Shown piece after piece: positions 1,522 through 63,622 of a stretch of DNA of 64,000 nt. A program made the translations under genes and the position numbers. The stretch is from a phage: the sequence record PZ386957.1. The stretch is one strand, 5' to 3'. How positions within the stretch are numbered: position 1 is the stretch's first letter; every line of letters begins with the position of its first letter. Under the pieces are notes generated by a model, which saw only the letters and a list, made by a program, of their open reading frames with translations, was not told the DNA's origin and made no database searches.

Positions 1522-2032
1522 ATTTGATTAGATCATCACATTGCTTACGTAGTTTATATTTGTATTCTTTAGAACGTAGCATTTGTACTTTTTCATAATC
1601 TCCTTCCTGAAATGCAGACGAGAGATCATCTTGATATGCTGCCTCCGTTCCAATAACACACATACCAAATTTACGACGTTGATCCGCTTCTTCCATAGCT
1701 TTGCGGTTCATTTCTTCAATTGAATTTTCACGACCATAATAATATTCGTAAATGCGTTTCTTCTCTGCTTCTTTATCGGCTTTAATCTTTGCGATCTGTT
1801 CTGCTGATTCCGGCTGACGGCCTAAACGCTGTAATGCCGCATCTTTCTTTTCAAGATAGTTAATCACGCAATCTTCAACACTATTGAATGGAAAACGTGG
1901 TTCTTGCTGCCATCGTGCACATGAGCGTGCAAACTCTTGTGTATTCTTAGATGCAAGTGCCAGGTCATGCACAGCGCACCCATTAAGCATAGCCACTAAA
2001 GCCGCAAGACCAATCAGTTTAATCATTTTCAT
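1520..2032 (-). CDS. putative lipoprotein
   Basis: N-terminal signal peptide MKMIKLIGLAALVAMLNGC with lipobox-like Cys; 170 aa. Confidence 0.5.
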   Translation of the reverse strand: MKMIKLIGLAALVAMLNGCAVHDLALASKNTQEFARSCARWQQEPRFPFNSVEDCVINYLEKKDAALQRLGRQPESAEQIAKIKADKEAEKKRIYEYYYGRENSIEEMNRKAMEEADQRRKFGMCVIGTEAAYQDDLSSAFQEGDYEKVQMLRSKEYKYKLRKQCDDLIK

Positions 2033-2853
2033 TTAGTCACCTCACCGAAAATTGTAAATTGTCTACGATTCTCATCACCGAAAGATTCTACTACGTCGTT
2101 TACCTTGATGCAAGTCCCACGCGGTAAAATTACTTCACATTCGCAAGGGTTCCATGCAATCGACCCAACAACAAAACCTTTATGATCTTTTACATCAATC
2201 ACCCACGAAACATTACAAGAATGTTGCATCTTTCCGGTCATTGATTCATATCGATTTTCGCAATAAAGGCTAGTGCTATTTGAAAGCCAGCCTCCAAAGA
2301 TGATCGGTGTCATGCTGGTAGATACAAAGTTTTTAAAGGTAAATTCCTTATCTTCAATAATACGCTCTATTGTCTGAATGTCAAGATGTTGACCGCGATA
2401 AAGAGTACCGTTTAACTTTTCGGTTTTATCCATGACACAATCCATCAAATCAACCATTTCTGATATTTCGTCGGTCATGTCTTCTTCCCCTAAGAGAGCA
2501 CCATTTACCCATTCGTAATGCTCGGAGATATAATCGCAGATCGCATCATACTCGGCTGGGGTAAGATTGGTGTGTCCATAATGTTTGAATACACTATCTC
2601 CGAAGTCTTCGGATTGTACTTCGTACATGACATTAATGATCTTCTTGACAAATCCATAATCTTGTGTTTCTCGCTCAAGAAAACGGATAACCTTAACGTA
2701 ATCATCAAAGTTAATATGATCGCTGATCATCTCAGTGATCATGTAACCATTAATACCCTCAATGTCATATGTTTCAATATAATTGTCCATACGTTCCATC
2801 ATGGTTTCGCGTGCTTCTTCTGAAAGACGAAAACCCTGTAATTGTTTGAACAT
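2029..2853 (-). CDS. ADP-ribosyltransferase, Alt-like paralog (R-S-E type)
   Basis: ART triad visible: YRG ... FKNFVSTS ... PCECEVILP; same motifs as the adjacent Alt. Confidence 0.7.
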   Translation of the reverse strand: MFKQLQGFRLSEEARETMMERMDNYIETYDIEGINGYMITEMISDHINFDDYVKVIRFLERETQDYGFVKKIINVMYEVQSEDFGDSVFKHYGHTNLTPAEYDAICDYISEHYEWVNGALLGEEDMTDEISEMVDLMDCVMDKTEKLNGTLYRGQHLDIQTIERIIEDKEFTFKNFVSTSMTPIIFGGWLSNSTSLYCENRYESMTGKMQHSCNVSWVIDVKDHKGFVVGSIAWNPCECEVILPRGTCIKVNDVVESFGDENRRQFTIFGEVTK

Positions 2854-2931: not shown

Positions 2932-4983
2932 TTACATTTTAAATTTATCTGGCATTGCGTCTACAGATACCAGATCAGCAATAAGCTGGCGTAGAGTTGC
3001 TTTGTCTGCTTTCTTGCGTTCTGTCTTAGCTTCGGTAATAAAGCTGGAGAAAGACAGGTCAGAAGCAGGTTTAACAACACCTTCACGGATGAATGCATCA
3101 CCGTCCGCGATCATCTCGCCAGATTCTTGTAATGCTGCCAGTTCATTTTTGGTCATAATATGTGCCTCAATGTAATAAGTTTCTTGTGAATCCGTCGATG
3201 CCGTAGCACGAGTTACCGTATCAAAGGATAACACAACACCGCGAGGAAGTAAAATCTCGCATTCTTTGTAAGCAAATGCTTTGTTACCTACTGGCAATAC
3301 AGGGATGTTTTCCGCGCCAGCAATGGAGAAAGCAACATTAGCGCCACCTTCACCGCGAGATCCAGCCATAGAATCAACACCAGCAACGGCACTAGCCACG
3401 TTTGCATTCCAGCCACCAAAGATATTAGGTGCAAGGGATGTGCTCACATAGTTTTTAAAGTAAAACGCTTTTTGCTTACGTGCAGTTTCCCACATTTGCG
3501 ACCGGAAGTCCATACCACGATACAGAATAGTACCCGGATCAAGTTTAACTCCATAGTTAGCGAAGGCATTATCCAGTGCATCACACATCTTGACCAATTC
3601 TTCTGGATCTGCTACACCTTCAAACTCTTCCAGTTTTCGATCTGTCAGGAAGTTGTTCATGTTAATGTATGCTGCATCGGCGTATTCGCTTAATACAAAA
3701 CCTTCCGCACCTGGTAGGTCAAGATCAATATCTGCCATCATTTCACCCATGTTGCTAGCAATTGCTTCAAACATACCGGAAGCAACATTACGCAGGGCAT
3801 CGGTTTTAATCTGGGTGATATGACTACGCAGCATTTCAGCTTTTATGTCTGCTGGCATAGCCGGATCTACTCGGTCCATTGCAAGGGCAGTGATCTTGTT
3901 TTCGAATACTTCCTCGCTCATGATTTCTTTTAAGCGTTTAATTGATGCCGCGATAACTTCCGCAGACAACGGATCATATTGGTCCTGAACTTTTACCAGT
4001 TCACTTACTGCGTATTTTGCATCGGCTTCGCTTTCAAAGATAGTACGCATAAAGCCATAGCGAGTGATAATATCACTTGTCCAGTCATTCAAAGAACGGG
4101 CGGTTGAACGTTCTAAGGCTTGACGATCGATCAGAGTATTAAACTGTTTCTTCGGTTCCGCTTCGGTAATGTCTTCTTCCGGTTTAAGATTAATTTTTTC
4201 TGGATGATTGACATAATCACCGTTATATGTCGCTTGAGTTTTCAGCATTTCTTCTTTAGTCAAACGAGATTTAGCCGCTACGCGTTGTTCCGCTTCCGCG
4301 TTTCGTTCTTCTTCTGCTGCAAGGCTAGCCGCATATGCTTCATCTTTAGTAAGAGATTCGCCAGTAGCTTTAGATACCCAGCGATCACCTAAATCACTTT
4401 CTACTTTAGTGAACAAGGACTCATCCAGTTTAATCCCTTTAATCTTATCAATCGCCATCCCTCGACGCTTGACAACAACTAAAGCGATCTTTTTGCTGGT
4501 CATTACTTCCTGCTGGAATACTTCAAACTTCGGAGTACGACGCACTAAACGCTCTATAACTCGTTTAACCAGTTCGGTCTTGCCTTTCATACGGGAAACA
4601 TTAAAACGGAACATAACAGCGTCTAATTGAGCTTTACGGGCGGTTTCCATCACCACATCAAAAGCACTTGCCATAACAGCAATCGGGTTATCGCCTAGAC
4701 CATTTTTAAGCTGTACAATTCGACCGCTTTTATTCATCTCACACAGGACCACATGCGCGGTTTTATCACCCACGCGAATAATTTTAGGTGTTTTGTTGGT
4801 GAAGTTGCAAAGACGAACAATCACATCTTTATCGCGTGTCTGTACTGCAAAAAGCTGTTTTGGGTTCTGCTTCGGCTTTAGGCACTGTACAGGGGCAATG
4901 CTACCAAAGTTTTCTTCCTCTTCTGTTAACAGCCATTTCTCAAAAGATTCAATCATTAGATCGTCGATTTCTAAGTTAAACAT
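2932..4983 (-). CDS. alt: ADP-ribosyltransferase Alt (packaged, modifies host RNA polymerase)
   Basis: 683 aa (T4 Alt 682 aa); C-terminal ART motifs YRGMDF / YVSTSL / KECEILLP; located after gene 54 as in T4. Confidence 0.85.
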   Translation of the reverse strand: MFNLEIDDLMIESFEKWLLTEEEENFGSIAPVQCLKPKQNPKQLFAVQTRDKDVIVRLCNFTNKTPKIIRVGDKTAHVVLCEMNKSGRIVQLKNGLGDNPIAVMASAFDVVMETARKAQLDAVMFRFNVSRMKGKTELVKRVIERLVRRTPKFEVFQQEVMTSKKIALVVVKRRGMAIDKIKGIKLDESLFTKVESDLGDRWVSKATGESLTKDEAYAASLAAEEERNAEAEQRVAAKSRLTKEEMLKTQATYNGDYVNHPEKINLKPEEDITEAEPKKQFNTLIDRQALERSTARSLNDWTSDIITRYGFMRTIFESEADAKYAVSELVKVQDQYDPLSAEVIAASIKRLKEIMSEEVFENKITALAMDRVDPAMPADIKAEMLRSHITQIKTDALRNVASGMFEAIASNMGEMMADIDLDLPGAEGFVLSEYADAAYINMNNFLTDRKLEEFEGVADPEELVKMCDALDNAFANYGVKLDPGTILYRGMDFRSQMWETARKQKAFYFKNYVSTSLAPNIFGGWNANVASAVAGVDSMAGSRGEGGANVAFSIAGAENIPVLPVGNKAFAYKECEILLPRGVVLSFDTVTRATASTDSQETYYIEAHIMTKNELAALQESGEMIADGDAFIREGVVKPASDLSFSSFITEAKTERKKADKATLRQLIADLVSVDAMPDKFKM

Positions 4984-5225: not shown

Positions 5226-5257
5226 GTTTGATTCTCCTTTCGTTTCGGTATGTGTGC

Positions 5258-5286
5258 ATTATAGGGGATCGGTGATCCCCTGTCAA
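5258..5286 (-). promoter_or_regulatory. sigma70-type early promoter with palindromic spacer (TTGACA-GGGGATCaccGATCCCC-TATAAT)
   Basis: Perfect -35 and -10 hexamers separated by a 17-nt spacer that is an inverted repeat containing two GATC sites. Confidence 0.75.
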
Positions 5287-5293
5287 CAACTTT

Positions 5294-5848
5294 TTAGTTA
5301 TTTTTTAATTGCTCATCTTGCAATAATGCAATCACATGCTGGCGATGTTCTTCCGATTGAGGCACACCGAAAAAGTTTGTTTTGTAGAAATATTCTAATC
5401 GATCTTCTCGTGTGCTCTCTTCCATCATGATAGCTGGTAGACCAAGATTGCGAAAACGTCGCTTTTCTGCTGGCGTAAAATCGCTGTAATACAACATAGA
5501 ATCATCATTACCAGCAATGCTAAACTCATCCTTCATGAAAGAGAATATTGCGTTTAAACGCTGTTTACCGTCCACGATTTCGATCTCATAGCGAGAGCCA
5601 TCATCAATCTTAGCCATTGCGATAGCGCCTACCGGAAAATCATTAATAAGGTTTTCGACAAACATGCGTTTGTTTTCTGTATTCCATACCAACTCACGCT
5701 GATAATCTGGGTTCATGTTGATATAGCCATCTTCTAACCATGCCTCATAGACAGAGATGACAAAGTTTTTAGTATTGGTATAGTAACGGCGTTTAGGCGT
5801 TAAACGGTTCATATTATAGTCTCCTGAATGGATCATCACGTAGGTCAA
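5294..5848 (-). CDS. DUF262 / ParB-like NTPase-nuclease domain protein
   Basis: Motifs NPDYQRELVW ... FPVGAIAMAKIDDGSRYEIEIVDGKQRL match the ParB/Srx-fold DUF262 signature (DGQQR-type). Confidence 0.55.
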   Translation of the reverse strand: MTYVMIHSGDYNMNRLTPKRRYYTNTKNFVISVYEAWLEDGYINMNPDYQRELVWNTENKRMFVENLINDFPVGAIAMAKIDDGSRYEIEIVDGKQRLNAIFSFMKDEFSIAGNDDSMLYYSDFTPAEKRRFRNLGLPAIMMEESTREDRLEYFYKTNFFGVPQSEEHRQHVIALLQDEQLKNN

Positions 5849-6146
5849 TATCTTTTAAGAACTCATCCCATGAATGCCGGATATTGTTCTTAGTTCTCCA
5901 GATAAGAGCAGGAATCGAACGCTCTCCCATCTGGAAGTAAGGATCATATGATCCATATGCCCAATATGCTACTACAATTCCACAATCAGCGCAATAGTAT
6001 TCTATTTCACTTGCTGGCGACCAAAGACCATCAATATGATCGGTGATCTTGCTTTCGATGTTATGGCTATGACAATCAGGGCAACGGATGCAATGACCTT
6101 GTTTATCGTAATTTGACGTTAGCGAATACTTGAATAATCTCATCAT
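5814..6146 (-). CDS. small zinc-finger protein
   Basis: CIRCPDCHSH ... CADCG cysteine pairs; 110 aa. Confidence 0.4.
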   Translation of the reverse strand: MMRLFKYSLTSNYDKQGHCIRCPDCHSHNIESKITDHIDGLWSPASEIEYYCADCGIVVAYWAYGSYDPYFQMGERSIPALIWRTKNNIRHSWDEFLKDIDLRDDPFRRL

Positions 6147-6859
6147 AGATCCTTATTGGCTTCAAATACTGCCTTTGCAAATCCGCGCGGGGTAAGTGAC
6201 CGGATAGTCTTTGTTCTGGTTCCTTTCCCGCCTAGCTTAGAATGCTGTTTACTGTACCCTTTCTCAATTGGTATCGGTTTCTTTTCTGGCATTATAAAGC
6301 CTTGTCCAGTCCATAGGCAAGTCTTTTTAGGATACATGTCACGGGCGGCGATATAATCAGGGAAGGTCGGATGTATATCATCTTCCGGTAAATATCCGCC
6401 ATATTCCCACGGGTGGAACATATAATCGGGTTTACGCCACATGCTAGAGATAACGCTTACAGGATTCTCTATCATGTAGGGAACGCCCAACCATTCGCCC
6501 AAATAAGCCGATATTTTCGCTGTTTGTACATCTCTGTGTTGAATGAGTGGACCTAGAGTTTTTCTCTTACGTTCAAAGTGTGCAGCACCACTAACCGCTA
6601 AATTTGAACAGCTAGGAAATGCAAAAATCATATCCGGTTTGCCCCATTCAAGATCCATTGCTCTTTCTAGCCAATCCAAATCAATCCAGGTGTTTACATA
6701 GGTAATGTTTGGATGCTCAAATCGGGTATTATACTTTTTGTATGTACCGTGGTCGCCATCGTCAGCATTAAAGCAGATCACCTTATGACCTGCTTTAGCC
6801 CATTCTAGCCCCATTATCCCCGATCCGTCAAAGTTGCAGAATATTAATTTTTGTTTCAC
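6143..6859 (-). CDS. minimal C5-cytosine methyltransferase-like protein (no obvious target-recognition domain)
   Basis: Motif I-like FCNFDGSGIMG, motif IV-like FPSCSNLAVSG (P-S-C instead of P-C-Q), motif VI-like MIENPVSV, with canonical spacing; only 238 aa. Confidence 0.4.
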   Translation of the reverse strand: MKQKLIFCNFDGSGIMGLEWAKAGHKVICFNADDGDHGTYKKYNTRFEHPNITYVNTWIDLDWLERAMDLEWGKPDMIFAFPSCSNLAVSGAAHFERKRKTLGPLIQHRDVQTAKISAYLGEWLGVPYMIENPVSVISSMWRKPDYMFHPWEYGGYLPEDDIHPTFPDYIAARDMYPKKTCLWTGQGFIMPEKKPIPIEKGYSKQHSKLGGKGTRTKTIRSLTPRGFAKAVFEANKDL

Positions 6860-7107: not shown

Positions 7108-7147
7108 TGTTTGATTCTCCTAAGTGGTATCTCGTCTTGATGTGTGT

Positions 7148-7176
7148 ATTATAGGGGATCTCCCGATCCCCGTCAA
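7148..7176 (-). promoter_or_regulatory. early promoter with palindromic spacer (TTGACG-GGGGATCgggaGATCCCC-TATAAT)
   Basis: Same architecture, upstream of ORF 6856..7107. Confidence 0.7.
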
Positions 7177-7190
7177 CAACTTTTTTAAAA

Positions 7191-7472
7191 TTATTCGTGA
7201 TTAGTTTCGATGTTATACATTTTGCACCAGTTCAGCCAATCACCCAGATCCTGATAGTTGATGCTTTTATCTGCTGCCATCGTTTTTGTCTTGATACCCA
7301 TATGTGCGTTATGAGTAACCATTTTTACAGTGAACTCAATTTTATCGCCTTTGGCCTTAACATCAACCAGTTTGGTCCACTGGCTACCAGCGCCGCGAAT
7401 GTTCATACCAACGATGTTTCCGATGTATGCTTCTTTGTTTTTCAGGATTTCGGTTGCTTTGATGAATTTCAT
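7191..7472 (-). CDS. hypothetical early protein
   Basis: 93 aa ORF preceded by promoter cassette. Confidence 0.45.
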   Translation of the reverse strand: MKFIKATEILKNKEAYIGNIVGMNIRGAGSQWTKLVDVKAKGDKIEFTVKMVTHNAHMGIKTKTMAADKSINYQDLGDWLNWCKMYNIETNHE

Positions 7473-7542
7473 TTTTGATTCTCCAGTTCGTTTCGGTATG
7501 GGTGTATTATGCTATGTTCTTACTTTGGTGTCAACAACTTTT

Positions 7543-7812
7543 TTAGATATTTTCAGAAATAAATTTTAAAACTTGACGTAAATGTTTCTCATCTTTGATA
7601 GTCGCCGGAAGTTCTTCTTTTACTTCCTGTGCAAGATAGATATTGCCGTTCCAAGTGAAAGATCCGTCTTCGTTTACGCGGTAGCTGAACATCCACTCGC
7701 AATCATTTTCGACTTCATAAACACACAGAAGGGTGTAATCATTAAAGTTATTGATTTCAAGGTCGAGGCCGTGACGTTTTGCAAAGTTGGTAGTGGTTTT
7801 AGTCAATGCCAT
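7543..7812 (-). CDS. hypothetical early protein
   Basis: 89 aa ORF preceded by promoter cassette. Confidence 0.45.
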   Translation of the reverse strand: MALTKTTTNFAKRHGLDLEINNFNDYTLLCVYEVENDCEWMFSYRVNEDGSFTWNGNIYLAQEVKEELPATIKDEKHLRQVLKFISENI

Positions 7813-7910
7813 TGTTTGATTCTCCTAAGTAGTATCTCGTTTCGATGGGTGTATTATGATATAGGCGTGATCTGGTGTCAACAACTTTTTTAAAATTTAG
7901 GCAATAAAAA

Positions 7911-7928
7911 GCCGACACTAAGGTCGGC
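7911..7928 (-). terminator. hairpin terminator GCCGACactaaGGTCGGC (repeated copy 1)
   Basis: Identical hairpin and flanks recur at 8411..8428; T-run follows on the - strand. Confidence 0.6.
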
Positions 7929-8251: not shown

Positions 8252-8336
8252 TCACTTCGTATTTGACTCCATCGGCGATAGCTTTTACTTTATACCATCC
8301 ATGCTTGTATAAAATCTTCATCTTTATTTCCCTCAA
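8142..8336 (-). CDS. hypothetical small protein
   Basis: 64 aa; SD GAGGGA upstream of ATG and promoter cassette directly upstream. Confidence 0.4.
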   Translation of the reverse strand: MREIKMKILYKHGWYKVKAIADGVKYEVIVFDGFNTYCEDVKLPSMGCAYDYCKQRIDNKANCF

Positions 8337-8354
8337 TCTCGTTTCGATGGGTGT

Positions 8355-8383
8355 ATTATGCTATACACAGGATCTAGTGTCAA
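8355..8383 (-). promoter_or_regulatory. early promoter (TTGACA-17-CATAAT), representative of the non-palindromic cassette
   Basis: Conserved block gtgtattatgctatac...tgtcaacaacttttt recurs at more than 15 sites in the window. Confidence 0.65.
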
Positions 8384-8410
8384 CAACTTTTTAAAATTTT
8401 ATGCAATAAA

Positions 8411-8428
8411 AAGCCGACACTAAGGTCG
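8411..8428 (-). terminator. hairpin terminator GCCGACactaaGGTCGGC (repeated copy 2)
   Basis: Duplicate of 7911..7928 including the flanking aataaaaa tract. Confidence 0.6.
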
Positions 8429-8438
8429 GCTAATAAAA

Positions 8439-9085: not shown

Positions 9086-9166
9086 AATTTGATTCTCCTA
9101 GTTAGAAAGTGTATCTCGTTTCGATGGGTGTATTATGCTATACACCCGATCTTATGTCAACACTTT

Positions 9167-9460
9167 TTATAAAATAATTTTTTGATATTTTTCTATGATG
9201 TTTGTGTAGGTCACGTCAACCGCTAGCACCGTTGCTTCGAATCCACCGTTTAACCAATGGCTATGATCATGGTCGTGAAAGAAACCTAGACCAGTACGAA
9301 GACCTTCTTTATATTCTGCGCGTACATTCAGTTTGTCGTCGATAAACAGATAAAACCATGAATTTTTACTAGGATTGATGATACAACCTTTCAGATTAGG
9401 GAGAATATCACGACTAAGAATAAACTTATCACCTACTTTGAACATAATATTAGTCCTCAC
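9167..9460 (-). CDS. H-x-H-W family small protein (paralog 2)
   Basis: ...HDHDHSHWL...VLAVDVT... Confidence 0.5.
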   Translation of the reverse strand: MRTNIMFKVGDKFILSRDILPNLKGCIINPSKNSWFYLFIDDKLNVRAEYKEGLRTGLGFFHDHDHSHWLNGGFEATVLAVDVTYTNIIEKYQKIIL

Positions 9461-9770: not shown

Positions 9771-9984
9771 ATTCTAGTTCTCCGTAATACACGGTAATCC
9801 ATTTTTCTTCATACTTTGTATCTTTCCAACACACAATCCCGTTTACTGTGCAATCTTTGGAATTGACGAATGATTCATATTGTTCTGCATCTTCCATCAT
9901 TGCATGAGCGGTCTTTTCATCGAATATATCGCAGATCGCTTTATATGCTCGATAATCTTTAAATTTGCTCATAATTAAGACCAC
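9757..9984 (-). CDS. hypothetical small protein, tandem duplicate A
   Basis: MSKFKDYRAYKAICDIF...; near-identical N-terminus to the next ORF. Confidence 0.45.
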   Translation of the reverse strand: MVLIMSKFKDYRAYKAICDIFDEKTAHAMMEDAEQYESFVNSKDCTVNGIVCWKDTKYEEKWITVYYGELEYEIN

Positions 9985-10184
9985 TCAAGAGTTTTTGAAA
10001 ACACATCTATCCATTGTTGAGTATATGCGGTTTCTTTCCATGATACAATACCAGTCGAATAATGGTTTTTGTTTCCAGAAAAGGACGGGCATTTTGAGGC
10101 ATCTTCCATCATCTTTTCGGCGAACTCTGGTTCGTATACTCGCAAGATCTGTTGATATGCTTTATAATCTTTAAATTTGCTCAT
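9975..10184 (-). CDS. hypothetical small protein, tandem duplicate B
   Basis: MSKFKDYKAYQQILRVY...MMEDA...; paralog of 9757..9984. Confidence 0.45.
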   Translation of the reverse strand: MSKFKDYKAYQQILRVYEPEFAEKMMEDASKCPSFSGNKNHYSTGIVSWKETAYTQQWIDVFSKTLEWS

Positions 10185-10449
10185 AATTGTTAACTACCTT
10201 ATCAGCTTCTTTTATTGTTTTTACATCAACTGCGATAATCCGTAAAGGTTCGTCGAAGGTCCACCAATGATCGTGAATATCGGCTTGTGATTTATCACCA
10301 AAGGAATCACGAATATCATTTTTACATTTATAGCCAATGTGACCTTCATAGTCAACATAAAGGTAATTATCGAAAATCGGCGTTTTTAAGATCATACCGA
10401 AAAATCTTTCTTTGTGTGTCTTATCCAGTGTTGCAGTAATTCTCATCAT
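10171..10449 (-). CDS. H-x-H-W family small protein (paralog 4)
   Basis: ...DIHDHWW...IIAVDVKTIKEADK... Confidence 0.5.
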   Translation of the reverse strand: MMRITATLDKTHKERFFGMILKTPIFDNYLYVDYEGHIGYKCKNDIRDSFGDKSQADIHDHWWTFDEPLRIIAVDVKTIKEADKVVNNYEQI

Positions 10450-10873: not shown

Positions 10874-10907
10874 TTTTGATTCTCCTATATCTCGTTGGTA
10901 TGTGTGC

Positions 10908-10936
10908 ATTATAGGGGATCACCGATCCCCTGTCAA
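10908..10936 (-). promoter_or_regulatory. early promoter with palindromic spacer (TTGACA-GGGGATCggtGATCCCC-TATAAT)
   Basis: Upstream of ORF 10706..10873. Confidence 0.7.
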
Positions 10937-10943
10937 CAACTTT

Positions 10944-11252
10944 TTATTCTTCATCTTCAACTTTATCTTTATATGCGTATTTCATAAATTTGTCTGCTAC
11001 TTTGTCGGCCTTTTCTGGTTTGACGTCTGACGCCAGGACAATGGCTAGATCGGTTTCGTCGTTCCCACCATACCAGTGATTATGTGTGTCGTTTTCATCA
11101 ATATAGAATTTATCACCTTCGTAAGTTCGAGCAAATACATCTAAATTCCCATCGATGTAAAAGATCCAATCTTCGTAAAGAATAACCGTATTAGCAAGGT
11201 TCTTGTTGCCTTCAACGAAAGGTTCGGTTACAAACAAATTGGTACGTTCCAT
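10944..11252 (-). CDS. H-x-H-W family small protein (paralog 5)
   Basis: ...NDTHNHWYGG...AIVLASDVKPEKADK... Confidence 0.5.
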   Translation of the reverse strand: MERTNLFVTEPFVEGNKNLANTVILYEDWIFYIDGNLDVFARTYEGDKFYIDENDTHNHWYGGNDETDLAIVLASDVKPEKADKVADKFMKYAYKDKVEDEE

Positions 11253-11826: not shown

Positions 11827-11860
11827 AATTGATTCTCCTAGTTCGTTTCGGTATGTGTGT

Positions 11861-11889
11861 AGTATAGGGGATCGGTGATCCCCTGTCAA
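11861..11889 (-). promoter_or_regulatory. early promoter with palindromic spacer (TTGACA-GGGGATCaccGATCCCC-TATACT)
   Basis: Upstream of ORF 11647..11826. Confidence 0.7.
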
Positions 11890-11902
11890 CAACTTTTTTG
11901 AA

Positions 11903-12379
11903 TTATTTTTCTTGATGCTCGCGCTCATACTTTTCGAAATAAAATTCTACTGGCTGGTCGTGGATTGACAGTAAGCCAAAGCGTTTAGCCGCGCGTAATC
12001 CCATGTTACGTTGAATGTACTTCTGGAAGTTCTCGCGTATACACTTACGCCAGTATTCTAAGCCCATACAGCTTTTATAAAGATTGCATTGCACACACGA
12101 CGGATTCATGTTATCAAGTATATCATGTTCCGGTTTATGCATTCCTACAACCTTATACTTCCACGATCCATCATCATTACGGGAAATTCGTCCATTTTCA
12201 TCATAGACTACTTTTGAGCGTCGCAATACTGGTTTGATGTGGTCTGCGTGCCAGCGATCCCCTAGTTCCTCGCCACAATAGGCACAACGTCCACCGTATT
12301 TCATTTTCAGGATCTGGCGTTGCTCTTTCTTTGACAATTTTTTAGGTTTAGGGGCTTTCGCCCCTTCATTATCACACAT
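11903..12379 (-). CDS. HNH endonuclease-like zinc-binding protein
   Basis: CAYCGEEL...HADHIKP...CVQCNLYK, a classical HNH beta-beta-alpha-metal motif; overlaps the ligase stop. Confidence 0.6.
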   Translation of the reverse strand: MCDNEGAKAPKPKKLSKKEQRQILKMKYGGRCAYCGEELGDRWHADHIKPVLRRSKVVYDENGRISRNDDGSWKYKVVGMHKPEHDILDNMNPSCVQCNLYKSCMGLEYWRKCIRENFQKYIQRNMGLRAAKRFGLLSIHDQPVEFYFEKYEREHQEK

Positions 12380-13874
12380 CGAATACCTCTTTTACTGTAT
12401 TTGCAGTTGTCTTATCGTAGCGAATACGTTTGATGATTGGGAGAAATAACGAGAACTCCGGTTCATCTTCTTTACGTGACTTGCTGCGAATATACCCGTT
12501 ACATGTCATCTCAATGACTTTTCCAATCAGGTTATGACGATCAGACCATAGCATTTCTCGGTCTAGTTCATTTCGACGGTCAAACGGAATCACACGTTCA
12601 ATACCATCATCACCTTTTTCGGTTGTAGTGTCGGTTAATCCCGATCCGGTATTAGTCATCATTCGTCCACACGCACTACGGACAGTAAAACCGCCTACCT
12701 TATTAGGATCTTTACTATGCGGATATACATCAACAATTTCCGCATCGAAGTCAATCACTTCTTTAAATTTGACCTGATCTTTACTGCGACGATCTTCAAA
12801 TACGCCATGTAAATTTTTAAGGATAATGCCTTCTAAGCCCATGTTTACATAGCGATGATATACTTCGCGAGCTTCATCGATATTGTTAACTACAGTATTT
12901 TCGATTATCTGAACACGAGGATCGTTGAGTTCGTCAACAATCTGTTTTAGTTCTTCGAATCGATCTTTATATTGCTTCGTTGCTTTCTCATTTCCGTAGT
13001 ACACATCACGGTCGATAACATCCCAGACAGTGTAAACAATACACTGGGCTTCTTCTTTTGGAATAGTTCCTTTCAGTGATTTGTTGAGGATACCATTTCC
13101 GGTCTGACGATCTGCAACAACGGATTCTTTAACCGCTTCCGCTACTGGCGTTAATGGCATTTCCTCTTCTTCAAATATCCATGACAGAGTACCATCATAA
13201 ACGCTCTCAACGAAGTTCTGTGCTGGTGTTTGCGAAAGGGTAGGCATATATACCAATTCGCCATCTAGAACAATTCCACGGCCTCGTAGACGCTCTAAAA
13301 CAGCAAACAAATCATCAAGCCCCTGATAGGTATTGCCTGAACGGGTATAGATTGCTAATGTTTCCCCGTCAATGTCAGCCATCCCACGAGCGCCATCACT
13401 TTTAAGTTGTGCATACGCCGGATATTTGATATTAGCAATAGTCTTATCAGAATATGACGATGCAAGGTGACATGGTTGCTGAGGAATCAGTTTCTTCCAT
13501 ACCTTGTTTGCGGTAGTAGCGGAACAACCGCACTCCAGATCACGATTCAGGACCATCATTGCAACTTTAGCATCATCTTCTGACAAGCAAGTCAGAGTAT
13601 CGGTAACTAGCTGTAATGCAGCATTGCCAGTTACTTGACGCGTGGCAAGTTTATTTTTAAAGACCTGTAATGCACCGGATAAAGACAATACAGATGAATA
13701 ACGAGAAGGTTTATCGTATTTCTTTACGCCAAACGTAACCTGTTTGCAATATGCCAGATAAAAGCATTCTTTCAGCGTTTCATTGCTTGCAGATTCTTTC
13801 AGAATCTTTTCTTTCAGCGATGTTTTGTCCGTTGCCGAAAGCTGATTAATGATATTAAGAATTGACATTTTCAC
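12372..13874 (-). CDS. 30: ATP-dependent DNA ligase gp30
   Basis: 500 aa (T4 gp30 487 aa); adenylation motif KSDGARG (KxDG). Confidence 0.85.
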   Translation of the reverse strand: MKMSILNIINQLSATDKTSLKEKILKESASNETLKECFYLAYCKQVTFGVKKYDKPSRYSSVLSLSGALQVFKNKLATRQVTGNAALQLVTDTLTCLSEDDAKVAMMVLNRDLECGCSATTANKVWKKLIPQQPCHLASSYSDKTIANIKYPAYAQLKSDGARGMADIDGETLAIYTRSGNTYQGLDDLFAVLERLRGRGIVLDGELVYMPTLSQTPAQNFVESVYDGTLSWIFEEEEMPLTPVAEAVKESVVADRQTGNGILNKSLKGTIPKEEAQCIVYTVWDVIDRDVYYGNEKATKQYKDRFEELKQIVDELNDPRVQIIENTVVNNIDEAREVYHRYVNMGLEGIILKNLHGVFEDRRSKDQVKFKEVIDFDAEIVDVYPHSKDPNKVGGFTVRSACGRMMTNTGSGLTDTTTEKGDDGIERVIPFDRRNELDREMLWSDRHNLIGKVIEMTCNGYIRSKSRKEDEPEFSLFLPIIKRIRYDKTTANTVKEVFDV

Positions 13875-14334
13875 CTCGTTTTGTTAAACGTTCACGAATA
13901 TCATTGAGGATACTACAAAATTCTGATTCAGTCAATATAGTCTTTAATGGATCTGTTCCACCTATACTGTGACGCAATTTCTTATTTCCTGTAGCAAGCA
14001 ATGCTTTACAAAAATCTGGGTTATTCCGTGCCATCGTAACAAATGCCAGATGTACCAGTCTGTAATAATGCTCACTCATTCGATGAATCGGGCGACCCTG
14101 AAAATATAACATGTGATTCTCTATCTTTTCAGTCCTTCCGGTTCTTTTTGCTTTGCCACCGTGCATCAAAAAGATTTCTCTTTGTCTCTGAGGGTTCTTA
14201 AATCTTAACCCCTGTAAAAATCCTTCTGTGCTGTTAATATCGCAACCAAATAGACGGAATGGTCTTTTATTGAAATTACTCAACTCACCCGATGGATAAG
14301 GTCCACCAGCATAGATATCAATTTCAGAAGTCAT
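13855..14334 (-). CDS. NADAR (YbiA-like, DUF1768) domain protein
   Basis: LSNFNKRP ... STEGFLQGLRF ... ALLATGNKKL resemble the YbiA/NADAR motifs; 159 aa. Confidence 0.5.
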   Translation of the reverse strand: MTSEIDIYAGGPYPSGELSNFNKRPFRLFGCDINSTEGFLQGLRFKNPQRQREIFLMHGGKAKRTGRTEKIENHMLYFQGRPIHRMSEHYYRLVHLAFVTMARNNPDFCKALLATGNKKLRHSIGGTDPLKTILTESEFCSILNDIRERLTKRGENVNS

Positions 14335-14570
14335 TGAAACTAATCTCGCTAATCAGAGAGAACGGATCATAATCGTCATGAGGAATATCGATAGTAATCG
14401 AATGAGGATTTACCCATACACCAAACTGGTCTTCTTCGGTGAATACTTCGGTATGAATTTCGTGGATGTTTACATTCATAGTTTTCATAATAAAAATTCC
14501 TTAATAATCAATAACTTACAAAATCATATAGCCAAAATATAGGCGGGATTATTTCCCGCCGTTTAAATCA

Positions 14571-14894
14571 TTAACCGTAAACTACCACAATATTCTGTTT
14601 GTGCGTTACAGTCCATTTCAGGTCGATCTCTTCTTCCTTCTTAACGCCGTTAATAACGTCTGGATGAGGAACTTTATTAAGTTTGCCATGAGGAAGCAGT
14701 ACAATTTTACCCAGCAATTCTTTATCTACATTCTCGCCAATATCAATGATTTTACCTACTAGCGGAATCTCACCCATAGTGCGCTTTTGCTCAATGATAA
14801 TACCCATAGAGCTTTTAACTTCGGTTCCTGCGCTTTCTGCTTTAGCTTCGATAATTACATAATCACCAAGTGCTTTAGGAGTTTTAACGGTCAT
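14571..14894 (-). CDS. 31: co-chaperonin gp31 (GroES-like)
   Basis: 107 aa (T4 gp31 111 aa) with a GroES-like mobile-loop region; located between 30 and cd as in T4. Confidence 0.7.
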   Translation of the reverse strand: MTVKTPKALGDYVIIEAKAESAGTEVKSSMGIIIEQKRTMGEIPLVGKIIDIGENVDKELLGKIVLLPHGKLNKVPHPDVINGVKKEEEIDLKWTVTHKQNIVVVYG

Positions 14895-14935
14895 AATTTT
14901 ATTACCTCTTCAAATCAATACAGTTTAATGATGAA

Positions 14936-15256
14936 TTATTTATAAATTTCGACGATCTGCGCTGGAGCCAATCCGTCTACGTGAATCAGTGTATCAAGCC
15001 CGAAGCTACGAAAACCTTCAACTGCAATTTCATATACTGGCAAAGATGTTTCTGATTCTTTACGCGGTTTTTCAACATTCGGAACTAACCATTTTTCGTA
15101 TGTTTCAAATGGCATCAATGCTGGATCGCGAGTAGCAATCATATCTCGGACAGTACCATCTTTCTTAGTAAACTGTAAAGCGTGAGTACCTACCGAAAAC
15201 ATTTTCTTTAGTGCTTCACGAAGTACGATATTATCAATTTGTTCAATCATTATCAA
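14936..15256 (-). CDS. hypothetical protein
   Basis: 106 aa ORF between cd and 31. Confidence 0.4.
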   Translation of the reverse strand: MIMIEQIDNIVLREALKKMFSVGTHALQFTKKDGTVRDMIATRDPALMPFETYEKWLVPNVEKPRKESETSLPVYEIAVEGFRSFGLDTLIHVDGLAPAQIVEIYK

Positions 15257-15770
15257 TACCCTTCAAATCAGTCAATAATGCTTTTGGAATACGCGTAACC
15301 GTAATGTCGGCTTTATACAAAATATCAGCCCAATCACGCCCACCATTTCGGTCGTATGTATCGCAATAGTATAGATGTTTAATGCCACTGTTTGCAATTG
15401 CTTTAGCGCAATCTGGGCATGGTGAAGCAGTACACCACATACTAGCGCCTTCAATCGATACACCGCTACGGGCAGCAAACAAAATAGCATTTAATTCAGC
15501 GTGGATCTCGTTTTTATGCGACCATGCGCTATGTTCCGGTCGTTTTGCTGGGATCATGTTGCCGTCATCATCCAGCCATCCGCTTTTATGTGCATGACAG
15601 CTACAGTTTTCTTGCCCTGCTGGAGTGCCATTAAATCCGGTAGAAATGATTCGCCCGTCTTTTTCAATCAGTGCGCCTACCTTCCACGAAACACATTTAG
15701 AGTTCTTTGCGATCAGATAGGCGATCTGCATGTAAGTTTGTGATAACATAATATAATCCTCACTTATCAT
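15243..15770 (-). CDS. cd: dCMP deaminase
   Basis: Zinc-binding deaminase motifs HAELNAI and PCPDCAKAI; 175 aa. Confidence 0.85.
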   Translation of the reverse strand: MISEDYIMLSQTYMQIAYLIAKNSKCVSWKVGALIEKDGRIISTGFNGTPAGQENCSCHAHKSGWLDDDGNMIPAKRPEHSAWSHKNEIHAELNAILFAARSGVSIEGASMWCTASPCPDCAKAIANSGIKHLYYCDTYDRNGGRDWADILYKADITVTRIPKALLTDLKGIDND

Positions 15771-15974
15771 TTAACCGTATACGCGAAAGTATTCTACGGA
15801 CCCGTCGCTATACTGTTTTACATTGAATGTATTCACACCATGATTATTGCTCATGATGACATATACACTACGACGTTCATCGCTAAACGGCATAACTGGT
15901 GCTGGTTCAATCTCAACATTAAAACCACGTTTAGCAAGTGCTTCGCCTAATTGCTTGATTTTATCGGTAAACAT
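15771..15974 (-). CDS. hypothetical protein
   Basis: 67 aa ORF tightly packed between cd and pseT. Confidence 0.4.
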   Translation of the reverse strand: MFTDKIKQLGEALAKRGFNVEIEPAPVMPFSDERRSVYVIMSNNHGVNTFNVKQYSDGSVEYFRVYG

Positions 15975-16852
15975 TAAAAGTCTCCGTAGTTAACCTGAAA
16001 ACATTCTACACCGATTGCGCGGTACATGTCAACCACTTGATCACGGTCATCTACTGCCAAAACAACATGATAACGCGGTGCAATTTCAGAGAAGAAAATC
16101 TCTTTCTTAACTTCATGGTCCGGTCGGCGATCATTAGTTTCACGCTGAAAGTGATCACTAGGTTCGATCCCTTGTTCACGCAACCATTGCAGCGTATCTT
16201 CTTCGCAAATGTCCTCACGTCCAGAACATGTAATGATCCGATAACCATTATCACGATACAGTTTAAGCATTTCGATAACCTGCGGACGTGGTTTATCTTC
16301 TTTGACCTTTGTCCAGTCAAAAGGATGACGATCGCCCTTATCCGCTAATGTCCCATCAATATCAAAGATCACTGCTTTCGGCAGCATGGTATTCGGTTTG
16401 TATACTTCTTGACCCATATATTCCTGCATCAGATAAAATTGGTTGCGCAGATTGGAAAGCGGAATTGCTTTCTCTCCACGATAGAAATTACGTTTCTTTA
16501 GTGTCTCAAATGATTCATTGAATACTTGTTCAGTATACACTGCGTCAAATTCTTTTGCAAGTTCTTTATAGAACACTCGATGTTTTTCTTTCAGGTTAGT
16601 ATCAGAGATAATGATACTTAATCCGCGTGATAGAGTCTCGCGAGCAATCATTCTCTGTACAGACTCTACCAGCTTTTCTTTTTCTTTAGTGTATTTGTAT
16701 TTCAGAAGCGAATCAACACCAAACAACATAAGACGCAGGTCATCACGATTTACATTACGATAATTACTAAACCGTTTACACGTTTCCATCGCCCAGGTGG
16801 ATTTACCGGACCCAGAACAACCAACGGTTAAAATCACTTCACATTTCGACAT
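15974..16852 (-). CDS. pseT: polynucleotide 5'-kinase / 3'-phosphatase
   Basis: N-terminal P-loop GCSGSGKST (kinase) and HAD-type DIDGTLA (phosphatase); 292 aa (T4 PseT 301 aa). Confidence 0.85.
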   Translation of the reverse strand: MSKCEVILTVGCSGSGKSTWAMETCKRFSNYRNVNRDDLRLMLFGVDSLLKYKYTKEKEKLVESVQRMIARETLSRGLSIIISDTNLKEKHRVFYKELAKEFDAVYTEQVFNESFETLKKRNFYRGEKAIPLSNLRNQFYLMQEYMGQEVYKPNTMLPKAVIFDIDGTLADKGDRHPFDWTKVKEDKPRPQVIEMLKLYRDNGYRIITCSGREDICEEDTLQWLREQGIEPSDHFQRETNDRRPDHEVKKEIFFSEIAPRYHVVLAVDDRDQVVDMYRAIGVECFQVNYGDF

Positions 16853-31924: not shown

Positions 31925-32605
31925 TCAACTATTTGTTTCGGCTTTTAATTGAGATATTTCTTTACACTCTTTAACTACTTTAACAAATAATGCTCTTGCT
32001 TTTGCGGCGTCAATAACAAGTAGTTTCTTGTACGCCTTCATTTTAACACTGTAAGTTTGCCAAATCAAGTCTTTGGCTACCTTGTCGTGTTCGTCGATTA
32101 TATTTAGAAAGCTATCTAACAACATAAACGACTCAAACGATATAATCCGATTTTGCAGTAGTTTAAAAATACCGCTTGTTTCGGTTGCGGGATTATATGT
32201 AATTAGCTCTTTAAGAGTAACCCCGCGTTTCTCTGAGAAGTATACCAGACTTTTAATGTCATCGTCAAATCGTGTTGCAGCATCAGTGATCTTACCGATA
32301 TACTCCATGTAAAATCCGTATGCGTCAACATCAGTGATTTCACCTACCCATGCATCGGTATTAGCTACCAGATTGCTTAGGAATAGGAAGTATAATTCTC
32401 TTAGATTGTACTTATCCGCTAATTTCGCGAAATAATACTTATCTCTGCGTTTATTGAATGCGGCATCAGACAACCGCATCCTCCAATTATATTTTACGCA
32501 ATCATAACGCCCGTTCATATGAGCTTTCATCATGCAATATAACATATACACAGATTTAGCATTAACTCGCATATCTGGATCTGGAGGAAGACGGTTTCTG
32601 ATCAT
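31925..32605 (-). CDS. 59: helicase loader gp59
   Basis: 226 aa with strings recalled from T4 gp59 (KSVY.LY.M...HMNG.YD..KYNW.MR.SDAA..KRRDKY, FISNLVAN.DAW). Confidence 0.75.
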   Translation of the reverse strand: MIRNRLPPDPDMRVNAKSVYMLYCMMKAHMNGRYDCVKYNWRMRLSDAAFNKRRDKYYFAKLADKYNLRELYFLFLSNLVANTDAWVGEITDVDAYGFYMEYIGKITDAATRFDDDIKSLVYFSEKRGVTLKELITYNPATETSGIFKLLQNRIISFESFMLLDSFLNIIDEHDKVAKDLIWQTYSVKMKAYKKLLVIDAAKARALFVKVVKECKEISQLKAETNS

Positions 32606-33141: not shown

Positions 33142-33744
33142 TTAACCCTCTTTACTAATTAATTGAAAACCACGTTCAGCTTTAGAAATCGTGCTAGGTT
33201 GTAAATCAGCGTTCACATATTCTAGCATCATTTCTCTGATAATGTCAAGTGCTTTTTCGTCACCTGATTTTAATTCGAACTCAAGTTCATAATGAGTATT
33301 AACAGCATCGAATTCACCATATACATCTCCATAGTAGAAATTGTCTTTGCACATTTCTACTATACCATATCCAACATCAAGTGTAAACACCCTGCGATTT
33401 GTCATTACTTGCAATCGCGGTAAAACATTATTGGAGTTTATGTCTAGACCATCAACAAACTTATCAAAATCAGAAAATGTTGAAAATGTAATTTCTTCTC
33501 GGTTGAATAACCCAGATTCACTACCACCAAACTTGACCATGATCAATTCTTTTTCAACGTCAAGTCGTGCGTAAATTCCTTTACGTCGTAGTGCTAGGTC
33601 ATCGGTGTCATAATAAAATTCGTTTTTGGTGTAGGCATTTCTGCTTACAATATGATAACCATCACACATTGCTACCCACGCATCTAATATAGAATCTTCA
33701 CCATCACATGAGCTTGCGTAGTATTTTAATTCAAGTTCTTTCAT
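33142..33744 (-). CDS. CYTH-like (triphosphate tunnel metalloenzyme / class IV adenylyl cyclase-like) domain protein
   Basis: N-terminal ExExK-type strand MKELELKYY, C-terminal YELEFELK, ~200 aa, consistent with a CYTH fold; an extra gene between rnh and dsbA relative to T4. Confidence 0.45.
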   Translation of the reverse strand: MKELELKYYASSCDGEDSILDAWVAMCDGYHIVSRNAYTKNEFYYDTDDLALRRKGIYARLDVEKELIMVKFGGSESGLFNREEITFSTFSDFDKFVDGLDINSNNVLPRLQVMTNRRVFTLDVGYGIVEMCKDNFYYGDVYGEFDAVNTHYELEFELKSGDEKALDIIREMMLEYVNADLQPSTISKAERGFQLISKEG

Positions 33745-33754
33745 ATGTCAACCC

Positions 33755-34702
33755 TTAGAATTCCCCTATTTTCTGCAACATTTTAACTAACGCATTTGTT
33801 ACAAAATAGTTATAAATTTTACCGCGTGGTGCTGGTTTAGATTTTTCCCATGACTCCAGAATCTGATTCTGGATATTGTCTGGGATCTCGTCAAAGTCAA
33901 TCAACTGACGGTTTTCATCAAATCGGCGTGCTTCTTCCTCTGTCATCAAAGACTTAGGATCTTCGGCATCGAAAATTTGCTCTAACCATTTGGTCGCAAC
34001 TGGTTTAGCTCGTTCACCTTCCAATCGAGAGATAATAAAATCACTACGGCACTTGACAGAAGCTACACCGTCTTTTGCGTCACCCTTAACACATTTTACC
34101 ATAAGGTCTTTGTACGGGCTACCATATTTGCATTTCTTCCATGCTTTTTGTACTGGTGCCCACTGCTTCACATTTTTGTATTTGTGTAACTGAGTGTAGT
34201 CACCGTCGCCGGAGTTAATAAGAACTTGACGTCCTTCAATAGAAAACTTTTTAGTTAATACAGCGATTATATCATCAGCTTCAACTTTGTCAACCTTAAT
34301 AACGTGATAAGGCATGTTTTCTTTAAACTCTTCGGTGATCTTATTGATCGCAGCAAAGATCATATCCCAATCACGCGGATCTGCGTCTCGCTTTTCCTTA
34401 CGGTTGCGCTTGTAATAAGGTGCAATATCGCGTCGCCAGTAACCTTTGCTCGAATCAAATGCAAGTACCGTAATCGGGTATTGCTCTTTGAATTTTGTCA
34501 TATTATAACGCATGGTGTCAAGGATAAGATGACGGATCATGCCTTCACTAATAGGATCTTCCGGTTTAAAGGTATGCGAGATAGTAGCAATCATAAGCTG
34601 TGACATATCAATCAAATGCACACCTTCCGGCAGTTTATCTTCTGGATCATCAAAAAAATCATTAAGTGTAGCGGTAGTTTTTGTAAACGGGTTATACGTC
34701 AT
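33755..34702 (-). CDS. rnh: RNase H / 5'-3' flap exonuclease
   Basis: 315 aa (T4 RNase H 305 aa); FEN-like acidic clusters; located upstream of the 34 region. Confidence 0.75.
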   Translation of the reverse strand: MTYNPFTKTTATLNDFFDDPEDKLPEGVHLIDMSQLMIATISHTFKPEDPISEGMIRHLILDTMRYNMTKFKEQYPITVLAFDSSKGYWRRDIAPYYKRNRKEKRDADPRDWDMIFAAINKITEEFKENMPYHVIKVDKVEADDIIAVLTKKFSIEGRQVLINSGDGDYTQLHKYKNVKQWAPVQKAWKKCKYGSPYKDLMVKCVKGDAKDGVASVKCRSDFIISRLEGERAKPVATKWLEQIFDAEDPKSLMTEEEARRFDENRQLIDFDEIPDNIQNQILESWEKSKPAPRGKIYNYFVTNALVKMLQKIGEF

Positions 34703-56305: not shown

Positions 56306-56815
56306 TCACGGCGTAAACTTGGATCATCGCCGTAGAGCATATCGAATAGCTCTTTGTAATTTTCTGGTAAAGTGATAATTTCCGTAACTGGTTCGTTAAT
56401 CACCTTGTGATAGTCTGATTCAGTCAAAGATGCCAACCCTTTGATGTATCGAATGTTATAACCTTTGATGTTATCACGGTCGGCTTCAAAGTCGTCAAGG
56501 CTATAGTACCAGCGTACATCATCACCTTTCTTTGGTTCCGCAATGATAATAGGTGTTTTCACAAACTTAATTCTACCTTCCTCGAACATTTCAGGCCAGC
56601 GAGCAAAGAAAGAAATAAGAGACGGTTTAATAGACCCTAAGCCAATAATCTCGATGTAAAGTTAGTTAGCCCGAAGGCTAACCATCGGTATCTGCGTCAG
56701 TCATTATCGCGATGTTTTTATACATTGTCGTTGGAGTCCGACGACGGCGTACATTCGTTTGCGCTTTGTATGCTACCATGTTCACATTCTGTGTGTCGAT
56801 TTTCTTTAATTTCAT
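56290..56815 (-). CDS. 60: DNA topoisomerase II subunit gp60 expressed by programmed translational bypass: join(56815..56681, 56640..56290), ~161 aa
   Basis: 5' segment MKLKKIDTQNVNMVAYKAQTNVRRRRTPTTMYKNIAIMTDADTDG ends at GGT followed by TAG in a hairpin; after a 37-nt gap, GGC-TTA-GGG resumes in the +1 frame as LGSIKPSLISFFARWPEMFEEGRIKFVKTP..., parallel to T4 gp60 as recalled. Confidence 0.7.
56664..56683 (-). promoter_or_regulatory. take-off stem-loop of the bypass element (GGU take-off codon + UAG stop in stem, UUCG tetraloop)
   Basis: mRNA 5'-GGUUAGCC-UUCG-GGCUAACU-3': 7 Watson-Crick pairs plus a G-U; landing codon GGC at 56641..56643 with GAG 6 nt upstream. Confidence 0.65.
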
Positions 56816-63073: not shown

Positions 63074-63622
63074 TTAAATTAAAGAAAATTTGTAAATTTC
63101 TATCAGGTCGCCGTTGCACGCGTAAACTTCCTCGATCTCATCTAAGATCATGGTCGTTCCGATCTTGTAAATGCACTCTCGCTCATCCGCTAACATCGCA
63201 TACAGAGACAAACGGGTAGTCGGGTTATCATATTCTTTCGACACCACGCGATCAATAGCATGTTCGTAATAATTCATGCAAGGCTTAGTTGGTTTTATTG
63301 CAATAACCTTCCCGGTTGCATAAACATCTGTTGCAAAGTCTTCTGCTGTTGATTGTAGTGGCGTAAAGCTCATAGGACGCTCTACAACGAAAGAATCACC
63401 CACAATTAAGGTATCCAGCTTACGACCTTCTCTTTTGCTCACACCGCGATACAGGGCTTCGTGGTGCACTAATCTTTCTGTCTTCTCAATAAGTGAATTA
63501 AGGATGTTCATGTCGATGTTATCCTTAGAGTTCATCACTTCATCAATAACATTAAGTTCTTCCGGTGTAAATTGCATAATAAAAAGCCTCCAATCTTTCG
63601 ACTGGAGGCATGATAAAACCAT
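63074..63622 (-). CDS. putative ADP-ribosyltransferase (ModA/ModB-like, positional)
   Basis: 182 aa; ...ALYRGV..., ...PLQSTA... are ART-like; lies after dda where T4 has modA/modB. Confidence 0.4.
   Translation of the reverse strand: MVLSCLQSKDWRLFIMQFTPEELNVIDEVMNSKDNIDMNILNSLIEKTERLVHHEALYRGVSKREGRKLDTLIVGDSFVVERPMSFTPLQSTAEDFATDVYATGKVIAIKPTKPCMNYYEHAIDRVVSKEYDNPTTRLSLYAMLADERECIYKIGTTMILDEIEEVYACNGDLIEIYKFSLI

Follow-up and report, generated by a model that had tools for sequence, protein, structure and literature searches.

Directly beside the DNA ligase gene of a phage whose DNA we analysed over 64,000 nucleotides (sequence record PZ386957.1; this whole stretch is referred to as the window) lies an open reading frame (ORF), for a protein of 159 amino acids, that corresponds to T4 gene 30.3 (adfN); in this RB49-like (Krischvirus) phage of Escherichia coli it probably specifies a minimal, single-domain NADAR N-glycohydrolase that serves as an orphan-antitoxin-like counter-defence against DarTG1. 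The ORF runs on the minus strand from an ATG at 14334 to a stop codon at 13855:

13855..14334, minus strand: gene 30.3 homologue, encoding a putative phage-type NADAR (AdfN-like) ADP-ribosylglycohydrolase of 159 amino acids

An earlier note, made from the letters of this DNA alone, had singled out the ORF beside the ligase gene for its YbiA/NADAR-like motifs, and both motifs are present, LSNFNKRP as residues 18-25 and ALLATGNKKL as residues 111-120. Our assignment is built on gene identity, family, fold, conservation of key residues, synteny and selection, with the chemistry and the phenotype taken from T4 only, and we infer by homology that a 38%-identical protein carrying an arginine in place of a lysine would act likewise in a Krischvirus phage.

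The protein scores 133.2 bits on the Pfam family PF08010 (Phage_30_3), for which the cutoff is 36, and the match takes in positions 2-138 of the 138 in the profile; T4 gp30.3, run as a control, scores 237.5 bits on the same model. Aligned directly, T4 gp30.3 and the window protein are 38% identical over their full length (E = 2e-30). In PHROGs, the match is to family 652, which is listed with function unknown. The gp30.3 family is large, with at least 4,471 homologues in a protein collection clustered at 90%, and at 50% identity it resolves into 976 clusters at E-values up to 1e-3 or 436 at E-values up to 1e-10; its members are also seen in Rhizobium and Acinetobacter phages and in contigs attributed to bacteria. 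By sequence comparison the gene is under purifying selection, with a ratio of nonsynonymous to synonymous substitution rates (dN/dS) of ∼0.14-0.15 against relatives whose protein is 61-69% identical, a comparison in which dS is near saturation. Because of the PF08010 score of 133 bits, the thousands of homologues and the dN/dS of ∼0.14, gene 30.3 is a real gene rather than a chance ORF.

The family also contains longer proteins. Metagenomic members of 465-497 amino acids (P0143, P0159 and P0184, with six more of like length and layout among 148 representatives) carry a C-terminal NADAR domain, and in the three named members the ∼320 N-terminal residues match nothing in Pfam. Other architectures include fusions to a thymidine kinase (P0192), a metallophosphoesterase (P0187) and a leucine-rich repeat region (P0179), as well as tandem NADAR domains (P0138, P0141). 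Some of these fusions could be gene-calling artefacts, and a Pfam scan of ten of the longer members returned mostly no partner domain and no consistent functional clue.

The placement of gp30.3 proteins in the NADAR superfamily is credited to de Souza and Aravind (2012) in the accounts of two later papers (PMC11543638, PMC11125620), which describe a histidine where YbiA has a glutamate and DarT-associated NADARs an aspartate. The window protein is consistent with this placement in several respects. Its predicted model adopts a NADAR fold, a helical core flanked by small sheets, that resembles the solved NADAR structures. When an alignment of the gp30.3 family was compared with Escherichia coli K-12 YbiA by hhalign, the two aligned over 91 columns (probability 76.6%, E = 2.1e-5), with LSNFNKRP and ALLATGNKKL standing opposite FSNFAAWP and LLLATAPAKL of YbiA; the register takes in the SNF motif, the glutamate, the lysine or arginine seven residues later, and the LLATG helix. 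YbiA was also the only match in a profile search of PDB sequences (E = 0.058), and the NCBIfam NADAR model gave a faint, sub-threshold match. A PDB match to a DltA ligase from a single-sequence search was rejected as spurious.

The canonical NADAR/YbiA profile, PF08719, had been put forward in the earlier note as the check on this assignment. Formally that check fails, with 15.8 bits against a gathering threshold of 35.1 (E = 0.017), and reciprocally YbiA scores a sub-threshold 17.4 bits on PF08010. T4 AdfN itself has no match to PF08719 at E-values up to 10, and because the proven T4 enzyme lacks one, a PF08719 match is not valid as a discriminator; the suitable model is PF08010. Since the PF08719 score is below threshold, we place the window protein in the NADAR superfamily and not in PF08719 itself. 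What the earlier note called a NADAR (YbiA-like) protein is thus upheld by the predicted fold, by homology to YbiA in profile comparison and by the T4 gp30.3/AdfN counterpart. No PADLOC defence model matched the window protein, a result that is uninformative because T4 AdfN matches none either.

The biochemistry of the superfamily and of its T4 member has been published. NADARs hydrolyse guanine-linked ADP-ribose, and their catalytic residues have been defined (Schuller et al., 2023, PMC11543638). T4 gp30.3 removes ADP-ribose from guanine (G-ADPr), but not from thymidine (T-ADPr), on DNA in vitro, although it failed as an antitoxin when the cells were not infected (Cihlova et al., 2024, PMC11125620). 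Later work added G-ADPr on RNA to the substrates of the T4 NADAR, and a summary table from 2026 credits canonical and YbiA-type NADARs, but not the phage NADAR, with removal of cytidine-linked ADP-ribose (C-ADPr). Gene 30.3 was renamed adfN, for anti-DarT factor NADAR, by Johannesman et al. (2025, PMC11825919), who titred T4 and T2 without adfN alongside their parents and saw plaquing lost only on DarTG1 hosts; T4 adfN also rescued RB69 on such hosts. Function was reduced in T4 AdfN by E36A, by K43A, which kept partial function, and by loss of the last 15 residues, a terminal helix missing from the RB69 allele (PMC11825919). The T4 protein fully works only in T-even infections, and the same authors raise the multi-functionality of AdfN (PMC11825919).

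Carried over to the window protein, this work suggests the following course of events. Host DarT1 would ADP-ribosylate guanine bases of the phage DNA and so block replication; gp30.3 would then bind the ADP-ribose and cleave, by hydrolysis, the N-glycosidic bond that joins its distal ribose to guanine N2, leaving unmodified DNA on which replication could resume. In the active site, the distal ribose would be held by E37 and the diphosphate by R44, standing in for the usual lysine, with H122 as the third active-site residue of the subfamily. The reversal of nucleic-acid ADP-ribosylation and the anti-DarT role that the earlier note had envisaged are in this sense borne out, by analogy with T4 AdfN, for which they are published. 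The residues concerned, and the terminal helix, are placed as follows:

14224..14226, minus strand: E37 (codon GAA), equivalent by alignment to T4 AdfN E36, E. coli C7 NADAR E88, Pn E43 and YbiA E48
14203..14205, minus strand: R44 (codon AGA), at the position of the phosphate-binding lysine (T4 K43, C7 K95, Pn K50, YbiA K55), seven residues after the glutamate
13969..13971, minus strand: H122 (codon CAC), the last-strand histidine that marks phage (gp30.3) NADARs against the YbiA glutamate and the DarG1 aspartate
13879..13929, minus strand: C-terminal α-helix, residues 136-152, intact in the predicted model, with predicted local distance difference test scores >90 to about residue 150

Conservation was read from one alignment of 90 close homologues and from 148 cluster representatives, with positions checked against the window sequence. 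The glutamate, whose role in characterised NADARs is to coordinate the ribose and which is catalytic (PMC11825919, PMC11543638), is conserved as E37 in all 90 close homologues and in 144 of the 148 representatives. H122, the histidine by which the subfamily is defined (PMC11543638, PMC11125620), is likewise found in 90 of 90 homologues and in 145 representatives. It comes right after a strand of the model (residues 119-121), and the hhalign match stops one residue earlier, opposite the YbiA residues KLV that precede the glutamate; that H122 is equivalent in space to the YbiA glutamate and the DarG1 aspartate is suggested by alignment and by the literature. In alignment, the 15 residues at the end of T4 AdfN fall opposite residues 136-150, within the intact helix.

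The histidine also bears on the idea that the protein could be an N-glycosidase of the YbiA kind with small molecules as its substrates, for instance intermediates of the riboflavin pathway, rather than nucleic acids. The fold and the SNF...E...K motif are common to YbiA and the window protein, and RefSeq annotates K-12 YbiA as an N-glycosidase, but the glutamate that defines YbiA is a histidine here, the PF08719 score is sub-threshold, no riboflavin genes are nearby and the T4 protein acts on DNA, so that we regard this explanation as barely credible.

Where the family carries its phosphate-binding lysine, the window protein has R44, a conservative change that gives no ground for exclusion from the family. 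Among the 148 representatives this position is lysine in 137, arginine in eight and another residue in three; two of the eight with arginine also lack the glutamate, and in each of these two the match to the query is split into two stretches. R44 is common to RB49, to P0001 and to a relative with 69% identity (L004), while a relative with 61% identity (L005) and T4 have lysine (AAA/AAG). Because R44 differs from the T4 lysine, the transfer of function from T4 is less than certain, and a weakened enzyme has to be considered, one that would give poor or no counter-defence and leave Krischvirus sensitive to DarTG1 or protected in some other way. In the E. coli C7 NADAR, K95R keeps hydrolysis in vitro and loses rescue from DarT1 in vivo (PMC11543638), which together with the partial rescue by T4 K43A and the prevalence of lysine across the family speaks for such a loss. 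Set against this, arginine is still able to bind phosphate, as the hydrolysis by K95R in vitro also indicates, and it recurs independently in ∼5% of clusters, mostly with the equivalents of E37 and H122 intact. Arginine is also fixed in the RB49 clade and in the 69%-identical relative, and since this goes with a dN/dS of about 0.15, function appears to be maintained. We take R44 to be a minority variant that is tolerated and maintained by selection, and consider a crippled enzyme improbable.

The same substitution could accompany a changed substrate. It is conceivable, if unlikely, that the protein is an active guanine-ADP-ribose hydrolase whose main target is not DNA modified by DarT1 but ADP-ribosylated RNA, or DNA hit by some other guanine-directed ADP-ribosyltransferase (ART) toxin. 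The activity of the T4 NADAR on G-ADPr in RNA, the suggestion of multi-functionality by the AdfN authors, and the breadth of the family, with its 976 clusters at 50% identity and its fusions outside T4-like phages, would all fit such a target. However, the sole in vivo phenotype known in the family is the loss of DarTG1 resistance, and in the literature examined we found no defence against T4-like phages that uses an RNA guanine ART. A related and similarly speculative thought, to which we give a low probability, is that the lysine-to-arginine change, fixed in the RB49/Krischvirus clade and present in ∼5% of family clusters, may set apart a subclass of phage NADARs with a shifted function, differing in efficiency, in substrate (for example, RNA G-ADPr or the product of another guanine-directed ART) or in the need for a partner. 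If so, the way in which Krischvirus phages evade DarTG1, if they evade it at all, would not be that of the T-even phages. More remote is the variant in which the enzyme would also clear nucleic-acid marks made by the phage's own Alt-like ART.

Counter-defence against DarTG1 remains the reading that we favour for gene 30.3, and several points weigh against it. The phages tested experimentally in PMC11825919 are all Tevenvirinae, a subfamily outside which Krischvirus falls, and a literature search on DarTG with Krischvirus or RB49 returned nothing relevant. The lysine that is functionally important in T4 (K43) and C7 (K95) is an arginine here, and C7 K95R was not protective in cells. Identity to T4 AdfN is only 38%. 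T4 AdfN also seems to need a further T-even factor to be fully active, and the T4 neighbours 30.1, 30.2 and 30.4-30.9 are absent from the window.

The earlier note had also stated that the window encodes Alt, an Alt-like paralog and a Mod-like ART, which agrees with the PF03496, PHROG and T4 ModB matches of the three genes:

2932..4983, minus strand: Alt ADP-ribosyltransferase, 683 amino acids (PF03496; PHROG 802, E = 6e-179; RB49 annotation)
2029..2853, minus strand: short Alt-like ADP-ribosyltransferase, 274 amino acids (PF03496, E = 4e-15; PHROG 15144; RB49 note "similar to C-terminal part of T4 Alt")
63074..63622, minus strand: ModA/ModB-like ADP-ribosyltransferase, 182 amino acids (PHROG 832; adjoins srd as in T4)

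Identity of the 182-amino-acid protein is higher to T4 ModB (33%, E = 1e-10) than to ModA (24%, E = 5e-6). The residue modified by Alt and Mod enzymes is arginine. Their substrates, according to the annotations of the T4 record, are proteins.

With three ARTs in one window, one of them a short Alt-like paralog without a known target, the NADAR might be thought to erase the marks left by the phage's own enzymes, on proteins or on off-target nucleic acids, and the earlier note had proposed such a pairing of writers and eraser. This proposal found no support, and we consider it very improbable. In the literature examined, reported NADAR activities are on guanosine- and cytidine-linked ADP-ribose in nucleic acids, with no activity on thymidine or on ADP-ribose at phosphate ends, and no activity test on arginine-linked protein ADP-ribose was found there. 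T4 and T2 without adfN fail only on DarTG1 hosts. Proteins of the gp30.3 type also occur in the Rhizobium and Acinetobacter phages and in the bacterial-attributed contigs, genomes that were not examined for ARTs, and in the window the ART genes lie ∼9-50 kb from gene 30.3, with no operon. Neither the analysis of the window nor the literature examined yielded a functional tie between the three ARTs and gp30.3, and the AdfN paper makes no mention of Alt, ModA or ModB (PMC11825919).

The surroundings of gene 30.3 are those of an RB49-type genome. Over positions 12000-16000 the sequence shows 95.6% identity to phage RB49 and to some 60 further Krischvirus genomes, and the protein differs from RB49 gp30.3 by one substitution (158 of 159 residues identical). 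Records of RB49 label the gene "30.3", and in most of the 60 phage records that are nearly identical it appears as "hypothetical protein". Its immediate neighbours are the following:

12372..13874, minus strand: gene 30, ATP-dependent DNA ligase, directly downstream in the same direction, overlapping the stop codon of gene 30.3
14324..14488, minus strand: ORF of 54 amino acids ("31.-1" in RB49), overlapping the start of gene 30.3 by 11 nucleotides (PHROG 15277, function unknown)
14542..14560, minus strand: terminator-like GC-rich hairpin (GGCGGGAAATAATCCCGCC) with a T-rich stretch after it, in the interval from gene 31 to the 54-amino-acid ORF, identified by pattern match only

The end of gene 30.3 and the start of the ligase gene overlap by 14-20 nucleotides, and the adjacency is also present in two relatives (L005 and L006). 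The two genes lie tightly packed and are probably transcribed together. The hairpin is a possible upstream boundary of the block formed by the 54-amino-acid ORF, gene 30.3 and the ligase gene; terminator-like hairpins in the region are no more numerous than expected from shuffled sequence. A promoter scan around gene 30.3 likewise found sigma-70-like sites no commoner than in shuffled sequence, and no promoter was assigned. Gene order is mostly common to L004 and L005 (61% identity in the latter), and runs rnlA, spanin, pseT (in L004 only), cd, 31.1, 31, the 54-amino-acid ORF, 30.3 and ligase. The 54-amino-acid ORF is co-conserved with gene 30.3: in relatives with a gp30.3 of no more than 61-69% identity, neither its length nor its position has changed. 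It is perhaps worth attention because T4 AdfN reportedly requires an extra phage factor. When 12 small T4 proteins (30.1-30.9, 30.3', alt.1 and alt.-3) were queried against the window, a counterpart was found for 30.3 only. Inside gene 30.3 there is no same-strand ORF of at least 40 amino acids, and the internal out-of-frame ORF 30.3' of T4 is not conserved.

Other features of the window were noted in passing. At least eight copies of an intergenic cassette of 70-95 nucleotides occur at 5239-5311, 7129-7201, 7487-7559, 7834-7928, 8336-8430, 9113-9207, 10889-10961 and 11842-11914. On the minus (transcribed) strand the cassette reads TTGACA, a 17-nucleotide spacer, and TATAAT or TATACT; four copies hold a GC-rich hairpin in the spacer (GGGGATCACCGATCCCC or a variant), and as a sigma-70 promoter the copy at 11889-11861 reaches a score of 11/12. 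Matches to the copies also occur at several intergenic sites in RB49, and the cassettes resemble the "PeSL" early-promoter/stem-loop cassettes of RB49-type phages. A 184-amino-acid ORF with a TTG start (5294-5848, minus strand) has a GmrSD_N (DUF262-type) domain, and covers only positions 9-183 of the 417 in PHROG 1583, so that the gene may be truncated or split; a DNA methyltransferase gene lies just past it at 6143-6859. A 200-amino-acid CYTH-domain protein of the triphosphate tunnel metalloenzyme family (33142-33744, minus strand) is encoded between a gene 59 homologue (31925-32605) and a 315-amino-acid ORF (33755-34702). Three ORFs for HNH-type endonucleases are scattered among core genes (11903-12379, 22011-22550 and 56718-57650, all on the minus strand), of which one overlaps the ligase gene at its end, one has an AP2 DNA-binding domain and one adjoins a 512-amino-acid ORF (57647-59185); all three are likely homing endonucleases. 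Two direct repeats of 90 nucleotides (9887-9976 and 10099-10188), 73% identical and 212 nucleotides apart, may extend over the beginnings of two small neighbouring ORFs on the minus strand, which would then be paralogues.

The gene, its family, its superfamily and the function of its T4 member are already published, the protein itself, one substitution away from RB49 gp30.3, is already present in public databases, and in its core reading the earlier note was essentially right. For annotation, "AdfN-like NADAR ADP-ribosylglycohydrolase" could replace "hypothetical protein" in the records of related phages. The lysine-to-arginine change is a natural variant of a residue at which the same substitution, in a related enzyme, split in vitro activity from in vivo protection, and RB49-type phages are therefore a cheap natural test of the role of this residue.

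Among known systems, T4 AdfN is the closest. Both proteins belong to PF08010, are similar in size and consist of the core NADAR domain only, and they have in common the glutamate, the subfamily histidine, an intact C-terminal helix and a location near the ligase gene of a T4-like genome, along with the 38% identity over their full length. They differ in that T4 AdfN has K43 where the window protein has arginine, and in that the window protein is extended by seven residues at the C-terminus. The loci differ as well. In T4, genes 30.1, 30.2 and 30.4-30.9 surround gene 30.3 (L001, 5206-8541), and none has a counterpart in the window, where the lack of 30.1 and 30.2 brings gene 30.3 right up to gene 30. 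The internal overlapping ORF 30.3' of T4 has no counterpart either.

The antitoxin DarG1, as represented by the E. coli C7 NADAR and the Geobacter lovleyi NADAR (PDB 8bat), has an aspartate for the phage histidine and extra N-terminal elements, and its gene lies beside that of DarT1. In structural alignment with the predicted model, a DarG1-type NADAR is 12% identical to the window protein. DarG1 is also not replaceable by the T4 enzyme in uninfected cells. We considered the window protein itself as a DarG1 antitoxin and rejected this, as its neighbours are the ligase gene and the 54-amino-acid ORF with no DarT1, the histidine is not an aspartate and the protein comprises the core domain only (159 amino acids). 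E. coli YbiA (PDB 2b3w) and a Phytophthora NADAR (PDB 8bau) have a glutamate in the last strand where the window protein has a histidine, and the window protein is sub-threshold on their profile, PF08719. Finally, the AdfN proteins of phages Bas32 and Bas60 are phage-encoded and counter DarTG1, like the T4-type family, but they were independently acquired, belong to other NADAR branches and are active without phage infection, whereas the window protein falls in the T4-type cluster.

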